Sequence record: NZ_CP022047.2
Reading direction: 5' to 3' (one strand)
Length of the DNA stretch: 64,000 nt
DNA from: a plasmid
The notes under the pieces are model-generated. The model saw only the letters and a list, made by a program, of their open reading frames with translations. It was not told where the DNA came from and did no database searches. Every line of letters starts with the position of its first letter. The first letter of the stretch is position 1. Positions 8,238 to 44,533 of the stretch are shown here, piece after piece. A program made the translations under genes and the position numbers.

Positions 8238-9443
8238 TCAACCCTGTCTTTTACTAAATACAAATGTAGCTACTAATATAGTAGTAACATTTATTAAAAC
8301 AGCAGCATAAATAATATTTAATATGTCGACTAAATAGCTAAATAGCATGACCACTATTGGAGGTGGTATTCTTAAAGCTAGAGATCTAAAACTACTAACT
8401 CTTCCTATAAATTCATTACTTGTTTCTTTTTGAATAAAAGTATTAATAAAGATAACACTTAGGCTGGAAGTGATACCTGTTAAAAATATTAGAGCAATTA
8501 CTAAGAAGGTATTTGGAACCATCACAGTTAATATAACTAATATAGAATATAGAACTATTAGTAGATAATTAACAGTACTCTCTTCTATTAGTTTTAATAT
8601 ATATGAGGCGCTAAAAGTTCCAACTATTGATCCGACGGAAAAACTTATTGTTAATAATGATAAACCTACTGATCCTAATTTTAAATTATCTGATAAAAGT
8701 ACAAACATTAAGCTAATAGGTGCTACTGATATATTAATAATAACCAAATAGTATATTGACTGCTTTAATAATCTTGAACTTGATTTTAAGTATTTAAATG
8801 ATTCTACTATACTACCTTTTATTCTTTTATCTATAATTTGTTGAGAAAAAGTTGGAACATACGCAAATTTCATTAGGATGGCTCCTCCTAGAAATAAAAT
8901 ACTTCCTAAAAATAGTGTATTAATTAAGCCTATTGTTTCAACTAAAACTCCACCTAATAATAATCCAATAATATTACATATATGTTTTACAAATTCAATA
9001 GAACTATTAGCTATAACTAGGTTCTTATCGTTTATTGATTTTTTTATAGTTGCTTGGAAGCTCGGAAGATAGAAAGAATTTAGTACTGATAAAATGAAGA
9101 CTAATACATACAACAATATAACGTTTAAAATATGATTTTGAACGTTATAAAAGAGAAAAGCAGACACCAACAACAATAAAAATCGCGATATATTTGTTGT
9201 TATTAATATATTTTTATTGTTGTACAAATCAGCTAAAGATCCAGAGTAAAAAGAAAAAATTATTATGGGTAAAACTTGGAATAGCGTTAATAACCCAACC
9301 AGATAAACATTATCAGTATATATATATAAGCTCCATAATACAGCAATCCCTAAAAAGGATTCACTTACTCTAGTTAATGCTAAAGACGATAAAATCAGAT
9401 GAAAATCAATACTCTTTATGAAATGTTTCATAGTTACTACCAC
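8238..9443 (-). CDS. MFS-type transporter (12 predicted TM helices)
   Basis: 401-aa highly hydrophobic ORF with the helix pattern typical of the major facilitator superfamily. Confidence 0.55.
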   Translation of the reverse strand: MVVTMKHFIKSIDFHLILSSLALTRVSESFLGIAVLWSLYIYTDNVYLVGLLTLFQVLPIIIFSFYSGSLADLYNNKNILITTNISRFLLLLVSAFLFYNVQNHILNVILLYVLVFILSVLNSFYLPSFQATIKKSINDKNLVIANSSIEFVKHICNIIGLLLGGVLVETIGLINTLFLGSILFLGGAILMKFAYVPTFSQQIIDKRIKGSIVESFKYLKSSSRLLKQSIYYLVIINISVAPISLMFVLLSDNLKLGSVGLSLLTISFSVGSIVGTFSASYILKLIEESTVNYLLIVLYSILVILTVMVPNTFLVIALIFLTGITSSLSVIFINTFIQKETSNEFIGRVSSFRSLALRIPPPIVVMLFSYLVDILNIIYAAVLINVTTILVATFVFSKRQG

Positions 9444-10902: not shown

Positions 10903-11343
10903 TCACGTTCCTTTCATTAATATTATTTGTAAAATGATTATTGTTCCGTTATATAGGCTATGCGTTACCATATTTGTCAAAATTGATTGCGTCTTATGAT
11001 ATAAAGCGCAATATATCAAGCCTGTACAAATTAAAGGTATAAAATTCGTACTTCCATGAATCCATCCAAATATGATGGATACTATTAAAGCCGATAGATA
11101 TATATTAGGTATCCACATTTTAAGAAAACCCCACAACCATTTTCTAAATACCAATTCTTCTATAACAGGTGCTATCAATATGCCAACACTCATTATCCAA
11201 ATATTATTTAAATATTCTTCAGTTCTAGATTTCGTAGAAGTCTTAAATTCAAATCCTAGTTTAGATTGTATGTAGCCAATACTGATTTGAACTAAAAATA
11301 AAAGAATATAAGCAATTAAGCTAAACTGTATTTTACTTTTCAT
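10903..11343 (-). CDS. CPBP/CAAX-type intramembrane protease (Abi family)
   Basis: 'VIEELVFRKWLWG' EExxxR motif and 'FGWIHG' His motif within a polytopic membrane protein. Confidence 0.65.
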   Translation of the reverse strand: MKSKIQFSLIAYILLFLVQISIGYIQSKLGFEFKTSTKSRTEEYLNNIWIMSVGILIAPVIEELVFRKWLWGFLKMWIPNIYLSALIVSIIFGWIHGSTNFIPLICTGLIYCALYHKTQSILTNMVTHSLYNGTIIILQIILMKGT

Positions 11344-11456
11344 CTCTTTCCCCCATAAAAAAACACGAGATAAATATATCTCGTGGCTTAAATATTGTTA
11401 TAATGGAAAAGTCGGTTACTCACTCCGTGCGTTTTCAACATGGAGGAGGTGAAACT

Positions 11457-11552
11457 ATGTGCACTATTATTTTTGTATCATTAATCGCTCCTATAATAAC
11501 AGGAGTAATTATTGCGTTATTTACACATTGGCTGAATAATCGCAAAAAGTAA
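11457..11552 (+). CDS. Type I toxin peptide, Fst/PepA1 (SprA1)-like, copy A
   Basis: 31-aa ORF MCTIIFVSLIAPIITGVIIALFTHWLNNRKK. It resembles S. aureus PepA1 ('IAPVISGCAIAFFSYWLSRRNTK') and pAD1 Fst. It has the SD 'ggaggaggtg' and a bidirectional terminator downstream. Confidence 0.7.
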   Translation: MCTIIFVSLIAPIITGVIIALFTHWLNNRKK

Positions 11553-11559
11553 CCGACTT

Positions 11560-11700
11560 CCAATGCCGCCTAAAAAAACCCCTCACTATTAACGGTAGTG
11601 AGGGGTTCGGTGTTTATATGTGCACTATTATTTTTGTTATATCTAATATAACACTTAGCTTAAATTTTCGCAAACACCCTACTTCTTTTTTCTCATCGCT
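11560..11700 (-). ncRNA. Candidate antitoxin antisense RNA for toxin copy A
   Basis: Minus-strand promoter TTGCGA-17-TATATT near 11655-11685. The transcript would contain 'aataatagtgcacat', complementary to the toxin start region, and end at the shared bidirectional terminator (11570-11615). Confidence 0.4.
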
Positions 11701-11768
11701 CAAAACTTGTTATAATAGAAAAGTCGGTTACTCACTCCGTGCGTTTTCAACATGGAGGAGGTGAGAAC

Positions 11769-11864
11769 ATGTTCATAACCATATTCGTATCATTAATCGC
11801 TCCTATAATAACAGGAGTAATCATTGCGATATTCACACATTGGCTGAATAATCGTAAGAAGTAA
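11769..11864 (+). CDS. Type I toxin peptide, Fst/PepA1-like, copy B (tandem duplicate)
   Basis: 31-aa ORF MFITIFVSLIAPIITGVIIAIFTHWLNNRKK. The ~310-bp unit is duplicated, including promoter, SD and terminator. Confidence 0.7.
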   Translation: MFITIFVSLIAPIITGVIIAIFTHWLNNRKK

Positions 11865-11869
11865 CCGAC

Positions 11870-11990
11870 TTCCAATGTCACCTAAAAAACCCCTCACTAT
11901 TCCAACTAGTGAGGGGTTCGGTGTGTCATGTTCATACCATATTCGTTACATATAATATAACACTTAGCTGATGTTTTCGCAAACGCCCTA
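11870..11990 (-). ncRNA. Candidate antitoxin antisense RNA for toxin copy B
   Basis: Same architecture as copy A. Carries the repeat 'tcatgttcataccatattcgtt' matching the toxin 5' end, plus a bidirectional terminator. Confidence 0.35.
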
Positions 11991-14162
11991 CTTCTTTTCG
12001 AAATCAAACACAATTTTATATTCTTCATTGAGTTTAAGTTTCGCATCAAACTTTTTACCTGCTTTACTTTTAAATCCTTTGATAACCTTACTTTTATGCG
12101 TCTCTAACAATGATTGAATGATTGTTTCTGATAGTGTTTTACCACTGATTACCCCAAACAATATATATTCACATGTCGAAGAATCACATGTATAAAAAGG
12201 CTGTCCTTTCTTAGATTTTCTTTTTAACAGGTGTCCTTGACGACATTTCGGACATTTACCAATCATTTGTGATTTTTGAAGTGATTCTAATGAAATACCT
12301 GATACGGATGTTTTGATCTGTTGATCAAAATTATTAACTTCTTCTTTCAATGACACTTTTATTTTTTCTAAAAATTTGTCTTGTACGTCTTTTTTTCCTA
12401 TTTCTGAAATGGTTTTAAGTTCATGTTCCCAATGCGCAGTCATTTCAACAGATGCTAGTTGGCTATTTTTTAATGCTTCACACAACATGTTACCTTTTTC
12501 TGTGATATACAACTTTTTCTTCCTTACTTCCATATAGCCTTTATCAATAAGACCTTTGACAATATTCCCTCTAGTAGCCGGTGTACCAATACCACTCACA
12601 TTTTTTAAATCTTTCTTCAATATTTCATCATCTAGTCCATTACTACATGTTTCCATCAATCCACCTTCACCACCAAGAGTAGCTTCTGTGAGATATACTG
12701 GGGGTTTAGTACGACCTTCTTTATTTTCTAATTTAACTTGAATTGTTTGTTTTTCTTGATATGAAGGAATGACTTGTACATCTGTTTCCTTTTCTTCCGT
12801 ATTTTGATATTGTTTCCAACCTTTATCTTTTGTAATAGTTCCTCTCGCTTTAAAAATAACATCTTGACATCTTAACGTTACCTTTGTTTCATCATAGACA
12901 AAATCTGGTTGAAACATGCCTAATGTACGTATAACAACTTCACGATAAATATTTTGTTGTGCCGAACTAAATGCCGATAAATCTTTCAATGTTGGGATTG
13001 TTTTAGTAGGTACAATGGCATAGTGTTCTAATACTTTATCACTATCAACGAAACGTTTTCTAGGCTCTAAATTTGTAAAATTCTCTTGAATATCTACAAT
13101 ATTGGCATAATCTGAAATTCGTTCCTTCAAATATTTAAACTCACTTGTTGTTATAAGATCACTATCTGTCCTCGGATAGCTTAAAAATCCCTTGTCATAT
13201 AGTGATTGCACAATTGAAAGTGTCTCATCTAATGTATATCCCCATTTTTGGTTCGCAACTTTCTGTATACCACCTAACTTAAATAGTTTTGGCGCAGGCG
13301 TTTGTTTTTCTTTTACTTCTACTTTATCAATTTGCCCAGTCATTTCATCTTTTAAGTCATGCTCTTCTTTAAATGCGTCATAAGTTTCTTTTGATTCAAA
13401 GCGTCGATCGTATTTAAATCGACATAATGGATTGGATGTCTCATCAATCGCAAATAATTCATAGAAAGGCTTTGATTCAAACGACTCAATCGCTTTATTT
13501 CTGTTATATACCATAAATAATGTTGGTGTTTGAACACGACCAACTGAAAAGACGCCAACATTTATCCCCATGTTTTGCATCGTAATTGAAGTCAATCTTG
13601 TCATATTAATACCTACAAGCCAGTCCGCAACACCTCTTGCTTGTGCCTCTAAATAGTAAGGGTACGTTTCTGCCCCAGTCTTCAATGATTGAAATGATGT
13701 TCTTAACCCTTCAGGTTCTTGTGTATTTGCCCAAAGTCTTTTGATTGTTATATCCCTATTTTTTATATTTGGAATTTGATTCATGACATATCGTGCGATA
13801 GCTTCACCTTCTCGATCTGGGTCAGTCGCAATAATGAATACATCTTGTGATGTTAATGATTCACAAAGACCTTCTATCTTATAAAACTGTTGAGAGGCAT
13901 AAGGTGATACTTTGTACTTCATTCTTTTAGGAATGAATGGTAATGTTTCTTTTTTCCACGCTTTTAATGATGAATCATAATCTTCCATATCGGCTAGTTG
14001 AATAAGATGTCCAACACACCACGTCACAATCACATCACCTTCTAAAATATTTGTTGTAACTTCAAAATAACCATCCTTCTTTTTAAATGTCCCTAAAGCT
14101 TCCGCATATTTTAAAGCTTGATTAGGTTTTTCAGCTAGTATGACGTGTTTCATTTCTATCAT
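11988..14162 (-). CDS. topB: Type IA DNA topoisomerase (topoisomerase III) of a conjugative element
   Basis: N-terminal Toprim ('MKHVILAEKPNQA...'). Central TopA core. C-terminal zinc ribbon 'CPKCRQG...CDSSTCEY'. Confidence 0.85.
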   Translation of the reverse strand: MIEMKHVILAEKPNQALKYAEALGTFKKKDGYFEVTTNILEGDVIVTWCVGHLIQLADMEDYDSSLKAWKKETLPFIPKRMKYKVSPYASQQFYKIEGLCESLTSQDVFIIATDPDREGEAIARYVMNQIPNIKNRDITIKRLWANTQEPEGLRTSFQSLKTGAETYPYYLEAQARGVADWLVGINMTRLTSITMQNMGINVGVFSVGRVQTPTLFMVYNRNKAIESFESKPFYELFAIDETSNPLCRFKYDRRFESKETYDAFKEEHDLKDEMTGQIDKVEVKEKQTPAPKLFKLGGIQKVANQKWGYTLDETLSIVQSLYDKGFLSYPRTDSDLITTSEFKYLKERISDYANIVDIQENFTNLEPRKRFVDSDKVLEHYAIVPTKTIPTLKDLSAFSSAQQNIYREVVIRTLGMFQPDFVYDETKVTLRCQDVIFKARGTITKDKGWKQYQNTEEKETDVQVIPSYQEKQTIQVKLENKEGRTKPPVYLTEATLGGEGGLMETCSNGLDDEILKKDLKNVSGIGTPATRGNIVKGLIDKGYMEVRKKKLYITEKGNMLCEALKNSQLASVEMTAHWEHELKTISEIGKKDVQDKFLEKIKVSLKEEVNNFDQQIKTSVSGISLESLQKSQMIGKCPKCRQGHLLKRKSKKGQPFYTCDSSTCEYILFGVISGKTLSETIIQSLLETHKSKVIKGFKSKAGKKFDAKLKLNEEYKIVFDFEKK

Positions 14163-43892: not shown

Positions 43893-44342
43893 CTTTACCG
43901 TCTCCTTTTTTAGAAATGATTTTGATTCACTTCTATATTGAATTGTGTTTTGTTAGTGAAAAGTCAGTTGATTTATTTCGAAGACAAGGGCGACTTTGTC
44001 GCAACGTTTACCCTTGTCTTTGAATGGTCGATCACAACCATTTATGGTTGATGATCCGACTTAATTAACTACATTTGAACGTCCAAAACACCAATATAGA
44101 TGTGAAAATGATTTTTAGAGGCGGTTTCCATATGCGTCTGCTTATGCAGACAAAAATACCGGTCAAAAGGGCTACCCTTTTGACCGGTATCAAGAGATTT
44201 GTTATAATATAGTTGTAAAAAAAGAGAACATGCGCGAACATGTTCTCTCCGTAGACCCGTTAAAAAGACGGTGACTTAAGTTAAAAAGATAAAAATAACC
44301 TTTTCGAACCTGTCAAAGTTGGAAGGTTATTTTTTTTGGTCG
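43884..44342. repeat. Duplicated ~450-bp module, copy 1 (structured leader plus sRNA plus toxin 3' end)
   Basis: Near-identical to 45095-45545 over the first ~380 bp. The last ~80 bp diverges but stays alignable. Confidence 0.8.
44216..44340 (+). ncRNA. Candidate antitoxin sRNA (SR4/RatA/SprF-like antisense), copy 1
   Basis: Consensus sigma-A promoter TTGACC-17-TATAAT with extended TG (44179-44209). 5' stem-loop 'AGAGAACATGcgcgaaCATGTTCTCT'. Terminator 'ATAACCTT...AAGGTTATtttttttt' overlaps the toxin ORF 3' end on the opposite strand. Confidence 0.5.
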
Positions 44343-44407
44343 TTGTTACTAATTATTACTAAGCCAATGATTGTTAATACAATCATGAGCATTTCATAAT
44401 CAGACAT
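44327..44407 (-). CDS. Type I toxin peptide, BsrG/TxpA/SprG-like, copy 1
   Basis: 26-aa ORF MSDYEMLMIVLTIIGLVIISNNDQKK with SD 'AAAGGA'. Its N-terminus parallels B. subtilis TxpA 'MSTYESLMVMI' and BsrG 'MTVYESLMIMI'. Its C-terminus parallels SprG 'LIGLVI'. Confidence 0.55.
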   Translation of the reverse strand: MSDYEMLMIVLTIIGLVIISNNDQKK

Positions 44408-44533
44408 GCTATTCCTTTCTAGGAGTAGAAACCAAAATCATAGGCATCACCCCATTTTCATGAGATTAGCCACCATCTATCCAACTTGTCTACTAAACTA
44501 TTCTAACACATCACCTCCTTTTCATCATTTGAA

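Follow-up and report, generated by a model that had tools for sequence, protein, structure and literature searches.

Why should one mobile element carry the same small toxin cassette twice, one copy directly behind the other, and do the two copies answer to one antidote or to two? The question is raised by the plasmid sequence record NZ_CP022047.2, of which a stretch of 64,000 nucleotides (hereafter, the window) was analysed. Between topB, encoding topoisomerase III, and a gene encoding an Rce1-like/CPBP protease, two units lie head to tail as direct repeats (11379-11690 and 11691-~11999; start-to-start spacing 312/309 nt), and the 203-nt core common to both is 88% identical. The two units very probably represent two complete, independently regulated type I toxin-antitoxin (TA) modules of the par/Fst type on a conjugative element of Mammaliicoccus sciuri. 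The original prediction had already placed two tandem Fst-family type I TA cassettes with an RNA I/RNA II layout between topB and the CPBP gene, and this is borne out by a passing match to NF033608, a match to PepA1 and some 520 plasmid homologues. Likewise, its duplicated ~310-bp unit, the strong Shine-Dalgarno (SD) sequence (GGAGGAGGTGA) 4 nt 5' of each ATG, the convergent minus-strand promoter TTGCGA-17-TATATT in both units, at a position conserved in homologues, and the direct-repeat copy of the toxin initiation region within RNA II were all recovered, and both peptides of 31 amino acids (aa) were found exactly as quoted, their implied coordinates being at most 1 nt off. What the analysis itself shows is the anatomy of the sequence, the family membership of the peptides, the conservation and co-variation of the RNA elements, and the predicted energies of their duplexes.

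The toxin genes and their start signal are as follows.

11442-11452, plus strand: SD sequence GGAGGAGGTGA of toxin 1, invariant in 5/5 cassettes (those of the window and of a sister element described below)
11457-11552, plus strand: toxin open reading frame (ORF) 1, 31 aa, MCTIIFVSLIAPIITGVIIALFTHWLNNRKK, matched by NF033608, Pfam and PepA1
11769-11864, plus strand: toxin ORF 2, 31 aa, MFITIFVSLIAPIITGVIIAIFTHWLNNRKK, matched by NF033608

Judged by sequence, both peptides belong to the Fst family. The NCBIfam model NF033608 (type I toxin-antitoxin system Fst family toxin) matched them with 55.7 (ORF 1) and 52.8 bits (ORF 2) against a cut-off of 26, and they are deposited as WP_142390951.1 and WP_142390952.1, respectively, under the NCBI name Fst family toxin (Mammaliicoccus sciuri); the exact peptides were seen on just two contigs (89.8 and 71.4 kb). 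Each carries the motif IAPIITG, with the PXXXG signature, in a hydrophobic helix that is followed by the charged/polar tail NNRKK. PepA1 (PDB 4B19) was matched at E 5e-6 over 26 aligned residues and LdrD (5LBJ) at E 3e-3, and the Pfam model Ldr_toxin gave significant matches that stayed short of its gathering score (25.7 and 26.2 bits vs 27). The resemblance to PepA1 and Fst proposed earlier thus holds as homology to PepA1 but not as membership of the PepA1 clade: the peptides read APIITGV, with no Cys after the glycine of PXXXG, whereas PepA1 reads APVISGC, this Cys being typical of the staphylococcal PepA1-type toxins (PMC7472228), and the Rfam model fstAT, which gives 70-108 bits on PepA1-type cassettes, gives 45-48 bits here, below its gathering threshold. 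By these comparisons the locus is homologous to SprA1/PepA1 of Staphylococcus aureus and lies outside that clade. Products of 49 and 41 aa, read from upstream start codons, were also considered as the true products and rejected: homologues are 30-31 aa long, and it is in front of the internal ATG, at a distance of 4 nt, that the perfect SD is found.

What makes each toxin gene part of a candidate RNA-regulated module is a second copy of its own start region, located downstream of the ORF in the following arrangement.

11456-11476, plus strand: direct-repeat copy a of unit 1, comprising the start codon and codons 2-7, TATGTGCACTATTATTTTTGT; predicted target of RNA II-1
11609-11637, plus strand: GGTG, 4 nt and repeat copy b of unit 1; the complement is the predicted RNA II-1 5' tail
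11768-11788, plus strand: direct-repeat copy a of unit 2, CATGTTCATAACCATATTCGT, unlike unit 1 in sequence
11920-11946, plus strand: GGTG, a spacer and repeat copy b of unit 2; predicted cognate duplex with a 1-nt bulge

In unit 1, TATGTGCACTATTATTTTTGT recurs at 21/21 positions at 11617-11637, 161 nt downstream, and nowhere else in the 64 kb; 0/100 shuffles gave a match. Copy b of unit 2 reads CATGTTCATA-CCATATTCGT (11927-11946) and differs from copy a by a 1-nt indel, the repeat being 20-21 nt long. The tail of the predicted RNA II would pair with the GGUG of the SD and, 4 nt further on, with the AUG and codons 2-7 (in unit 1, 21 nt across the AUG), and the cognate duplexes are predicted to have energies of -34.6 (unit 1) and -33.2 kcal/mol (unit 2). 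The same arrangement recurs across the family, as seen in cassettes gathered from species-representative genomes (22 loci, six genera), metagenomes (71 loci) and plasmids. With 27 distinct cassettes from six genera, the start region recurs 60-95 nt past the stop codon, with alignment scores of 16-21 for cognate pairs and means of 7-12 for non-cognate ones. Among 53 unique cassettes encoding 31-aa peptides, the 17 nt following the ATG are 85% identical to the cassette's own downstream copy, compared to 54% for copies belonging to cassettes whose start region differs. Column entropy across these 53 cassettes revealed an equal pattern of variability in both repeat copies, while the SD, the ATG and both -10 boxes are conserved.

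Around this repeat, the signals for two convergent RNAs can be placed in each unit.

11396-11404, plus strand: putative RNA I-1 promoter, extended -10 TGtTATAAT; sequence and position kept in homologues
11708-11716, plus strand: putative RNA I-2 promoter, extended -10 TGtTATAAT; from sequence and cassette alignment
11645-11673, minus strand: putative RNA II-1 promoter, TTGCGA-17-TATATT with TG extension; from a scan and the conserved -10 position
11954-11982, minus strand: putative RNA II-2 promoter, TTGCGA-17-TATATT with TG extension; from a scan
11409-11616, plus strand: predicted RNA I-1 toxin mRNA, ~205 nt, with ends placed by promoter and hairpin
11721-11926, plus strand: predicted RNA I-2 toxin mRNA, with a fold matching the architecture of unit 1
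11409-11420, plus strand: 5' arm of the predicted 5'-3' helix of unit 1 (analogue of the par 5'-UH), 12/12 complementary to 11548-11559
11721-11732 with 11860-11871, plus strand: arms of the predicted 5'-3' helix of unit 2, 12 bp, by complementarity
11423-11445, plus strand: predicted 5' stem-loop CUCCGUG/CAUGGAG over the 5' part of the SD, unit 1
11577-11607, both strands: predicted shared hairpin terminator of unit 1, loop TTAACGG; from fold and scan
11888-11918, both strands: predicted shared hairpin terminator of unit 2, with the stem of unit 1 and loop TTCCAAC; from the fold
11570-11638, minus strand: predicted RNA II-1 antitoxin, ~68 nt, with putative ends; fold z = -5.4
11882-11947, minus strand: predicted RNA II-2 antitoxin, ~66 nt, with putative ends; from the fold

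Both toxin mRNAs are predicted to fold far more stably than their shuffled counterparts, with minimum free energies of -71.4 (z = -7.8) and -71.6 kcal/mol (z = -6.6) for RNA I-1 and RNA I-2, respectively. In unit 1 the partner strand of the 5'-3' helix (11548-11559) spans the toxin stop codon, and in 16 representative cassettes the helix is kept by compensatory change (cognate energies -12 to -19, non-cognate medians -5 to -10 kcal/mol). A 5' hairpin sequestering the SD is predicted in both units and in 15/15 representative homologue 5' untranslated regions (UTRs), with stems that differ in sequence; it covers the GGAG(GAG) of the SD and leaves GUGA free. These helices were followed by duplex and fold calculations on individual sequences in place of an RNAalifold consensus, as RNAalifold, applied to a global MAFFT alignment of RNA I and to the 5' UTRs, lost both the 5'-3' helix and the 5' hairpin through register shifts. 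The predicted RNA II begins with an unstructured 5' tail of 32 nt and ends in the terminator hairpin. Both hairpins, with stems of 12-14 bp, lie between the convergent promoters, and the one in unit 1 is followed on the minus strand by a tract of 7 T, a strong termination signal for RNA II. By eye, the unit 1 loop UUAACGG contains UUAA, a YUNR motif, and a strict YUNR is lacking from UUCCAAC, the loop of unit 2; the YUNR U-turn in the terminator loop of the toxin RNA is not present in every par homologue (PMC7472228).

Read by analogy with the par locus of plasmid pAD1, each module would function as follows. The extended -10 promoter would drive a toxin mRNA (RNA I) of ~205 nt, which the 5'-3' helix and the 5' hairpin over part of the SD would keep stable but poorly translated. 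The convergent promoter would drive an RNA II of ~68 nt ending at the common hairpin terminator, and its 5' tail would be the complement of the DNA direct repeat of the toxin start region. RNA II would dock on the mRNA, an interaction which in par begins at the complementary terminator loops (PMC7472228), zip across the repeat and occlude both SD and AUG, thereby blocking ribosome binding. Were the element lost, RNA II would presumably decay before RNA I and the 31-aa membrane peptide would be made; it would damage the membrane and the cell would be killed or arrested (post-segregational killing). Stacked cassettes with different recognition sequences would act as independent addiction specificities. 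The transcripts and their ends, the toxicity of the peptides, the differential decay of the RNAs, orthogonality in vivo and the stabilising function are all inferred.

A number of observations weigh against this interpretation. With the Pfam model Fst_toxin (PF13955), the peptides fell below the gathering score of 36 (30.8 and 25.2 bits, E 2.6e-7 and 1.5e-5); the model has 21 positions, and the precomputed annotation of a protein collection does assign PF13955 to both peptides. Rfam fstAT (RF01797) gave 47.6 (11502-11593) and 44.9 bits (11814-11904) on the minus strand vs a gathering score of 72, and these matches lie antisense to the 3' half of the ORF and the first terminator arm, off the predicted RNA II. 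On three PepA1-type cassettes of the Staphylococcus capitis plasmid NZ_CP092858.1, however, fstAT scored 108, 85 and 70 bits, two of them above the gathering score, and there too the matches (2801-2895, 9200-9293 and 12838-12930) were antisense to the 3' half of the ORF, even where that score was passed; no fstAT match was found on the plasmid-type cassettes of loci L001 and L002. As plasmid-type cassettes go unmatched and passing matches lie antisense to the ORF, the model appears to track the SprA1 clade and not the predicted RNA II. The promoter scan showed no enrichment over shuffled sequence (4 found vs 3.7 expected), and the RNA I promoters have no recognisable -35. For this reason the promoter calls rest on position conserved among homologues: TGnTATAAT lies at an equal distance in the staphylococcal plasmid homologues and has low column entropy in the 53 cassettes, and the RNA II -10 is held at a fixed distance from the repeat. 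Of the bidirectional terminator claimed for each unit, a hairpin shared by both RNAs remains, but the plus-strand U-tract after it is weak and the scan gave a plus-strand terminator for unit 1 only. Finally, 0/2000 permutations reached the observed match of start regions to their own repeats, with a partial rank correlation of 0.46 given ORF divergence, but these permutation tests take no account of the relatedness of the cassettes.

Homologues of the cassette are widespread on staphylococcal plasmids. In PLSDB, 520 plasmid records, 518 of them from Staphylococcus, contain a cassette ~70% identical over ~80% of the unit and annotated as Fst toxin, a family which was recovered only by blastn with 11-nt words. 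Megablast against PLSDB gave no match for the cassette, and for the 7-kb neighbourhood only a 211-bp match to a relaxase, indicating that there is no close plasmid relative in that database. The order of elements is collinear among the homologues: extended -10, AAGTCG 5' end, SD, ORF, hairpin, CGGTG, start-region repeat and reverse-strand extended -10. Among species-representative genomes, which do not include the source element, the best peptide identity was 68%. Tandem pairs were found at 0/63 metagenome loci (searched within +/-1.5 kb) and at 1/22 genome loci, the exception being Lapidilactobacillus wuchangensis (NZ_RHOU01000004.1; cassettes at 2616 and 2992, spacing 376 nt), in which the peptides MFDKIIAPIIIGVVLATYNYWLSNRHRK and MLDEIIAPIIVGVILALFNYWLNNKQHK each have their own matched pair of start region and repeat. 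The tandem arrangement had been regarded as unusual; while it is rare in the staphylococcal subfamily by these counts, type I loci are known to occur as tandem duplicates, a property that has even guided searches for them, and examples include Fst-A/Fst-B of Streptococcus pneumoniae (Fozo 2010, PMC2887945).

In both architecture and proposed regulation, the modules resemble par of pAD1 from Enterococcus faecalis, sharing convergent promoters, a common hairpin terminator, complementarity of RNA II to the toxin start by way of direct repeats, a 5' hairpin on the SD, a helix sequestering the 5' end of RNA I and a small hydrophobic PXXXG toxin; the conserved features of par homologues and the par mechanism have been described (PMC7472228). 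They differ from it in that the window peptide is only ~27% identical to Fst, that one long interrupted repeat (GGTG + 4 nt + 21 nt) takes the place of the named pair DRa/DRb, that only unit 1 of the window has a strict YUNR in the RNA I loop, and that par is a single module whereas the window has two in tandem. The closest relatives by sequence are the Fst-like cassettes of staphylococcal plasmids, with ~70% DNA and 61-74% peptide identity, the same element order and the same IAPII(V/T)GVI...HWLN type of peptide without Cys after the Gly. Such cassettes occur on VRSAp and pSK1-type plasmids, to go by the mentions of this work in two later papers (Weaver 2009 and Kwong 2010, cited in PMC4885055 and PMC8594479). 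They are single or dispersed, with four on NZ_CP092858.1, whereas two or three stand head to tail in the elements of M. sciuri. With SprA1/SprA1AS of S. aureus the likeness lies in the homologous peptide (4B19, E 5e-6) and in the mode of action predicted for the antisense RNA: SprA1AS overlaps the 3' end of SprA1, yet it is with a 5' domain outside the overlap that it targets the start region (PMC8594479). Compared to Ldr/Rdl, in which the antisense RNA targets the 5' UTR, a regulatory difference from par stated in PMC7472228, the antisense RNA of the window is on the 3' side. As tandem type I loci within one intergenic region, Fst-A/Fst-B (of the same superfamily), ldr-rdl and ibs-sib offer parallels, but all of these are chromosomal, whereas the array in the window resides on a conjugative element.

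Whether the two modules are equivalent can be judged from where they differ. Position by position, unit 1 and unit 2 compare as follows.

5' UTR (42 nt) with SD: 0/42 differences
Terminator stem 3' half with GGTGT block: 0/18 differences
Start region, -4 to codon 6: 10/23 differences
Downstream repeat copy: 9/23 differences
Terminator loop: 5/5 differences

The recognition segments thus hold 24/51 differences, compared to 21/261 at all other positions (Fisher p = 2.4e-10), although the limits of the segments were drawn after viewing the alignment; they match the recognition elements of the par model. Within arrays, cognate pairs are calculated to form duplexes of -33 to -35 kcal/mol and non-cognate pairs duplexes of -8 to -16 kcal/mol, while shuffled controls reach -8 +/- 2 kcal/mol. 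Given this divergence of the repeat pair and terminator loop, each RNA II is predicted to neutralise mainly its own toxin, so that each copy probably answers mainly to its own antidote. It would follow that the array provides two separate addiction specificities (ancestrally three) and not a doubled dose of one. The suggestion that a duplicate raises addiction strength is accordingly weakened, for the copies are not equivalent: their recognition elements differ, and they are predicted to be largely non-cross-reacting.

The rival view is that the copies are redundant, with substantial cross-repression, and that the array merely raises the dose of toxin and antitoxin, the start regions, as part of an unconstrained N-terminus, having drifted neutrally before compensatory changes set in. 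Its strength lies in the constancy of the scaffold, the terminator stems and the GGTG block being identical between units, and in one of the two non-cognate pairs: RNA II-2 on toxin mRNA 1 keeps -16.2 kcal/mol over ~22 interrupted bp, beyond the lowest of 500 shuffles (-14.7). This energy and the identical stems speak against strict orthogonality and make partial cross-talk possible, and the orthogonality of the modules is itself a thermodynamic prediction. Residues 2-6 are, moreover, the most variable part of the peptide throughout the family, consistent with low constraint at the protein level. However, the cognate duplexes are ~18-25 kcal/mol more stable than the non-cognate ones, RNA II-1 on toxin mRNA 2 is at background (-9.9 kcal/mol), and 5/5 positions differ in the terminator loop, at which the RNAs kiss in the par model. 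Precedent is provided by the tandem type I locus zorO-orzO/zorP-orzP of Escherichia coli O157:H7, in which a paralogous antitoxin leaves its neighbour's toxin unrepressed, as predicted here; specificity is set by a short variable region in the pairing segment, and a 3-nt difference was found by experiment to suffice to abolish cross-repression (PMC3919570). That system involves an unrelated toxin family, its antitoxin, from a divergent gene upstream, pairs with the 5' UTR, and its specificity is experimental where that of the window is predicted. Nor is the pattern confined to tandem arrays, as each of the four dispersed Fst cassettes of the S. capitis plasmid NZ_CP092858.1 has a private repeat pair (score 16-18 vs 6-10). 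Redundancy with substantial cross-repression is, on this evidence, unlikely.

The S. capitis plasmid itself (31.9 kb) has its Fst cassettes at 2758, 9157, 12795 and 21731, three being of the PepA1 type and one of the plasmid type, and it also encodes two PemK/MazF type II toxins.

The history of the array was traced through a sister element on contig JAMWMD010000008.1 (GCA_035794175.1), which is 96-98.5% identical to the window over 12 kb and has three cassettes between the orthologues of the CPBP and topB genes. Its middle cassette presents a third combination of start region, repeat and loop and encodes the peptide MLDVLFVTLIAPTITGVIIAIFTHWLNKRKK (WP_325886907.1). Unit 1 of the window corresponds to sister cassette 1; the body of unit 2 corresponds to sister cassette 3 (a single difference beyond column 32), whose place is taken over the initial 32 nt of unit 2 by sister cassette 2 (2 differences, vs 7 to cassette 3). 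From these alignments, a three-cassette ancestor most likely lost its middle unit by recombination within the invariant 5' UTR, and the loss looks recent. The duplicate itself had been attributed to recent recombination, which is not upheld: the units are 12% diverged and each has an orthologue in the sister element that is 97-99% identical, so the duplication is old and the recent event looks like a deletion. The exact 32-nt pattern of the 5' UTR had 0 matches in metagenome and viral collections, which gave no further specificity types on this scaffold.

Two copies in one element and three in the other raise the further, tentative possibility that the array is a small, exchangeable library of orthogonal addiction specificities. 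Promoters, 5' UTR, SD, toxin body and terminator stem may be held constant by purifying selection or gene conversion, while codons 2-6, the repeat copy and the terminator loop may be under diversifying selection. A related plasmid or chromosome with a matching RNA II may disarm a module of single specificity (anti-addiction), and cassettes may be gained and lost by recombination in the invariant scaffold, with three in one element and two here. If so, the N-terminus of the toxin would be shaped by specificity at the level of RNA and not by protein function. Leaving this idea aside, near-identical elements in which an invariant scaffold bears private recognition sequences in two or three copies offer a small natural system for studying how RNA antitoxins of the Fst family tell paralogous targets apart, and the array can also reveal whether stacked, non-cross-reacting modules make a conjugative element harder to displace. 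Public annotation of the locus consists of the toxin ORFs only, to which two predicted antitoxin RNAs, their promoters and pairing sites are added here; what is new is the matched divergence of the recognition elements and the polymorphism of two vs three copies, and the understanding of the family is unchanged.

A second alternative accepts a genuine type I TA locus but assigns it another main role, be it abortive infection of phage, growth arrest under stress, or transcriptional insulation or termination, with the array separating the topB/relaxase operon from the CPBP/sortase genes. The genes flanking the array are the following.

10903-11343, minus strand: Rce1-like/CPBP protease gene
11988-14162, minus strand: topoisomerase III gene (topB)

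For many Fst/Ldr homologues the function has indeed been described as obscure (PMC7472228), and the hairpin of cassette 2 is the sole terminator-like element past the topB stop codon; the RNA II-2 promoter abuts that codon, which ties the array physically to the transcription of the adjacent operon. Stabilisation is nevertheless the role better matched by the setting. The neighbourhood, in M. sciuri, encodes a MobL relaxase, a coupling protein, a primase-like protein, a sortase and an LPXTG protein, which together identify a conjugative element, and such a location fits the canonical stabilising role. The 520 records of homologues on plasmids, nearly all staphylococcal, fit it as well, the plasmid versions of the family have been described as post-segregational killing systems (PMC7472228, PMC4885055), and no defence genes were seen adjoining the array. 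A main role other than stabilisation is therefore judged quite improbable. That either cassette, or both, is a decaying remnant without present function, as the unstable copy number (2 vs 3 between near-identical elements) and the 1-nt indel of the unit 2 repeat relative to its own start region might suggest, is highly improbable, since each unit has its ORF intact, with a perfect SD, and likewise its promoter pair, hairpin, 5'-3' helix and repeat pair, the sister orthologues are 97-99% identical with few changes outside the recognition elements and an invariant 42-nt 5' UTR, and the bulged duplex of unit 2 still reaches -33.2 kcal/mol.

At the topB border, the -35 of the RNA II-2 promoter (11982-11977) is located 5 nt from the topB stop codon (11988-11990). 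As no terminator-like site lies between the two, read-through from topB would end at the cassette 2 hairpin, and the read-through transcript would hold the RNA II-2 sequence within its 3' UTR. At the opposite border, the CPBP gene (start 11343) has a minus-strand terminator-like hairpin (11385-11364), followed by TTTTTTT, directly ahead of its SD and start codon. This hairpin overlaps the RNA I-1 promoter in its -35 region and may serve as an attenuator, or as an insulator that separates the CPBP/sortase genes from the array.

Partial matches to the Rfam model RsaJ (RF01822) were found on the minus strand at 11575-11652 and 11886-12024 (32 and 23 bits, gathering score 100). Only the 3' end of the model is matched, a part similar to an RNA II tail with a CCCCUCACUA terminator, and the annotated 3' end of RsaJ may overlap an Fst-type antitoxin. 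As annotations of the window, RsaJ, ncr1575, rnk_leader, RefA9 and PyrR were rejected, their Rfam matches being far below gathering scores and attributable to shared-terminator or chance resemblance.

Fst cassettes of the staphylococcal type were also encountered on two Streptomyces contigs, NZ_BMPQ01000092.1 (S. flaveus, 790 bp) and NZ_JBEZWE010000045.1 (Streptomyces sp., 4.8 kb). The encoded peptides match those of Mammaliicoccus fleurettii and Staphylococcus massiliensis exactly, and the presence of Fst cassettes in Streptomyces assemblies probably reflects contamination.

Elsewhere in the window, a second candidate type I TA locus is formed by a match to RatA (44205-44296, plus strand; 56 bits, gathering score 49) converging on one to rli28 (44337-44515, minus strand; 107.7 bits vs a gathering score of 45). 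Within the rli28 match, a hydrophobic ORF of 26 aa, MSDYEMLMIVLTIIGLVIISNNDQKK, is located on the minus strand at 44327-44407.

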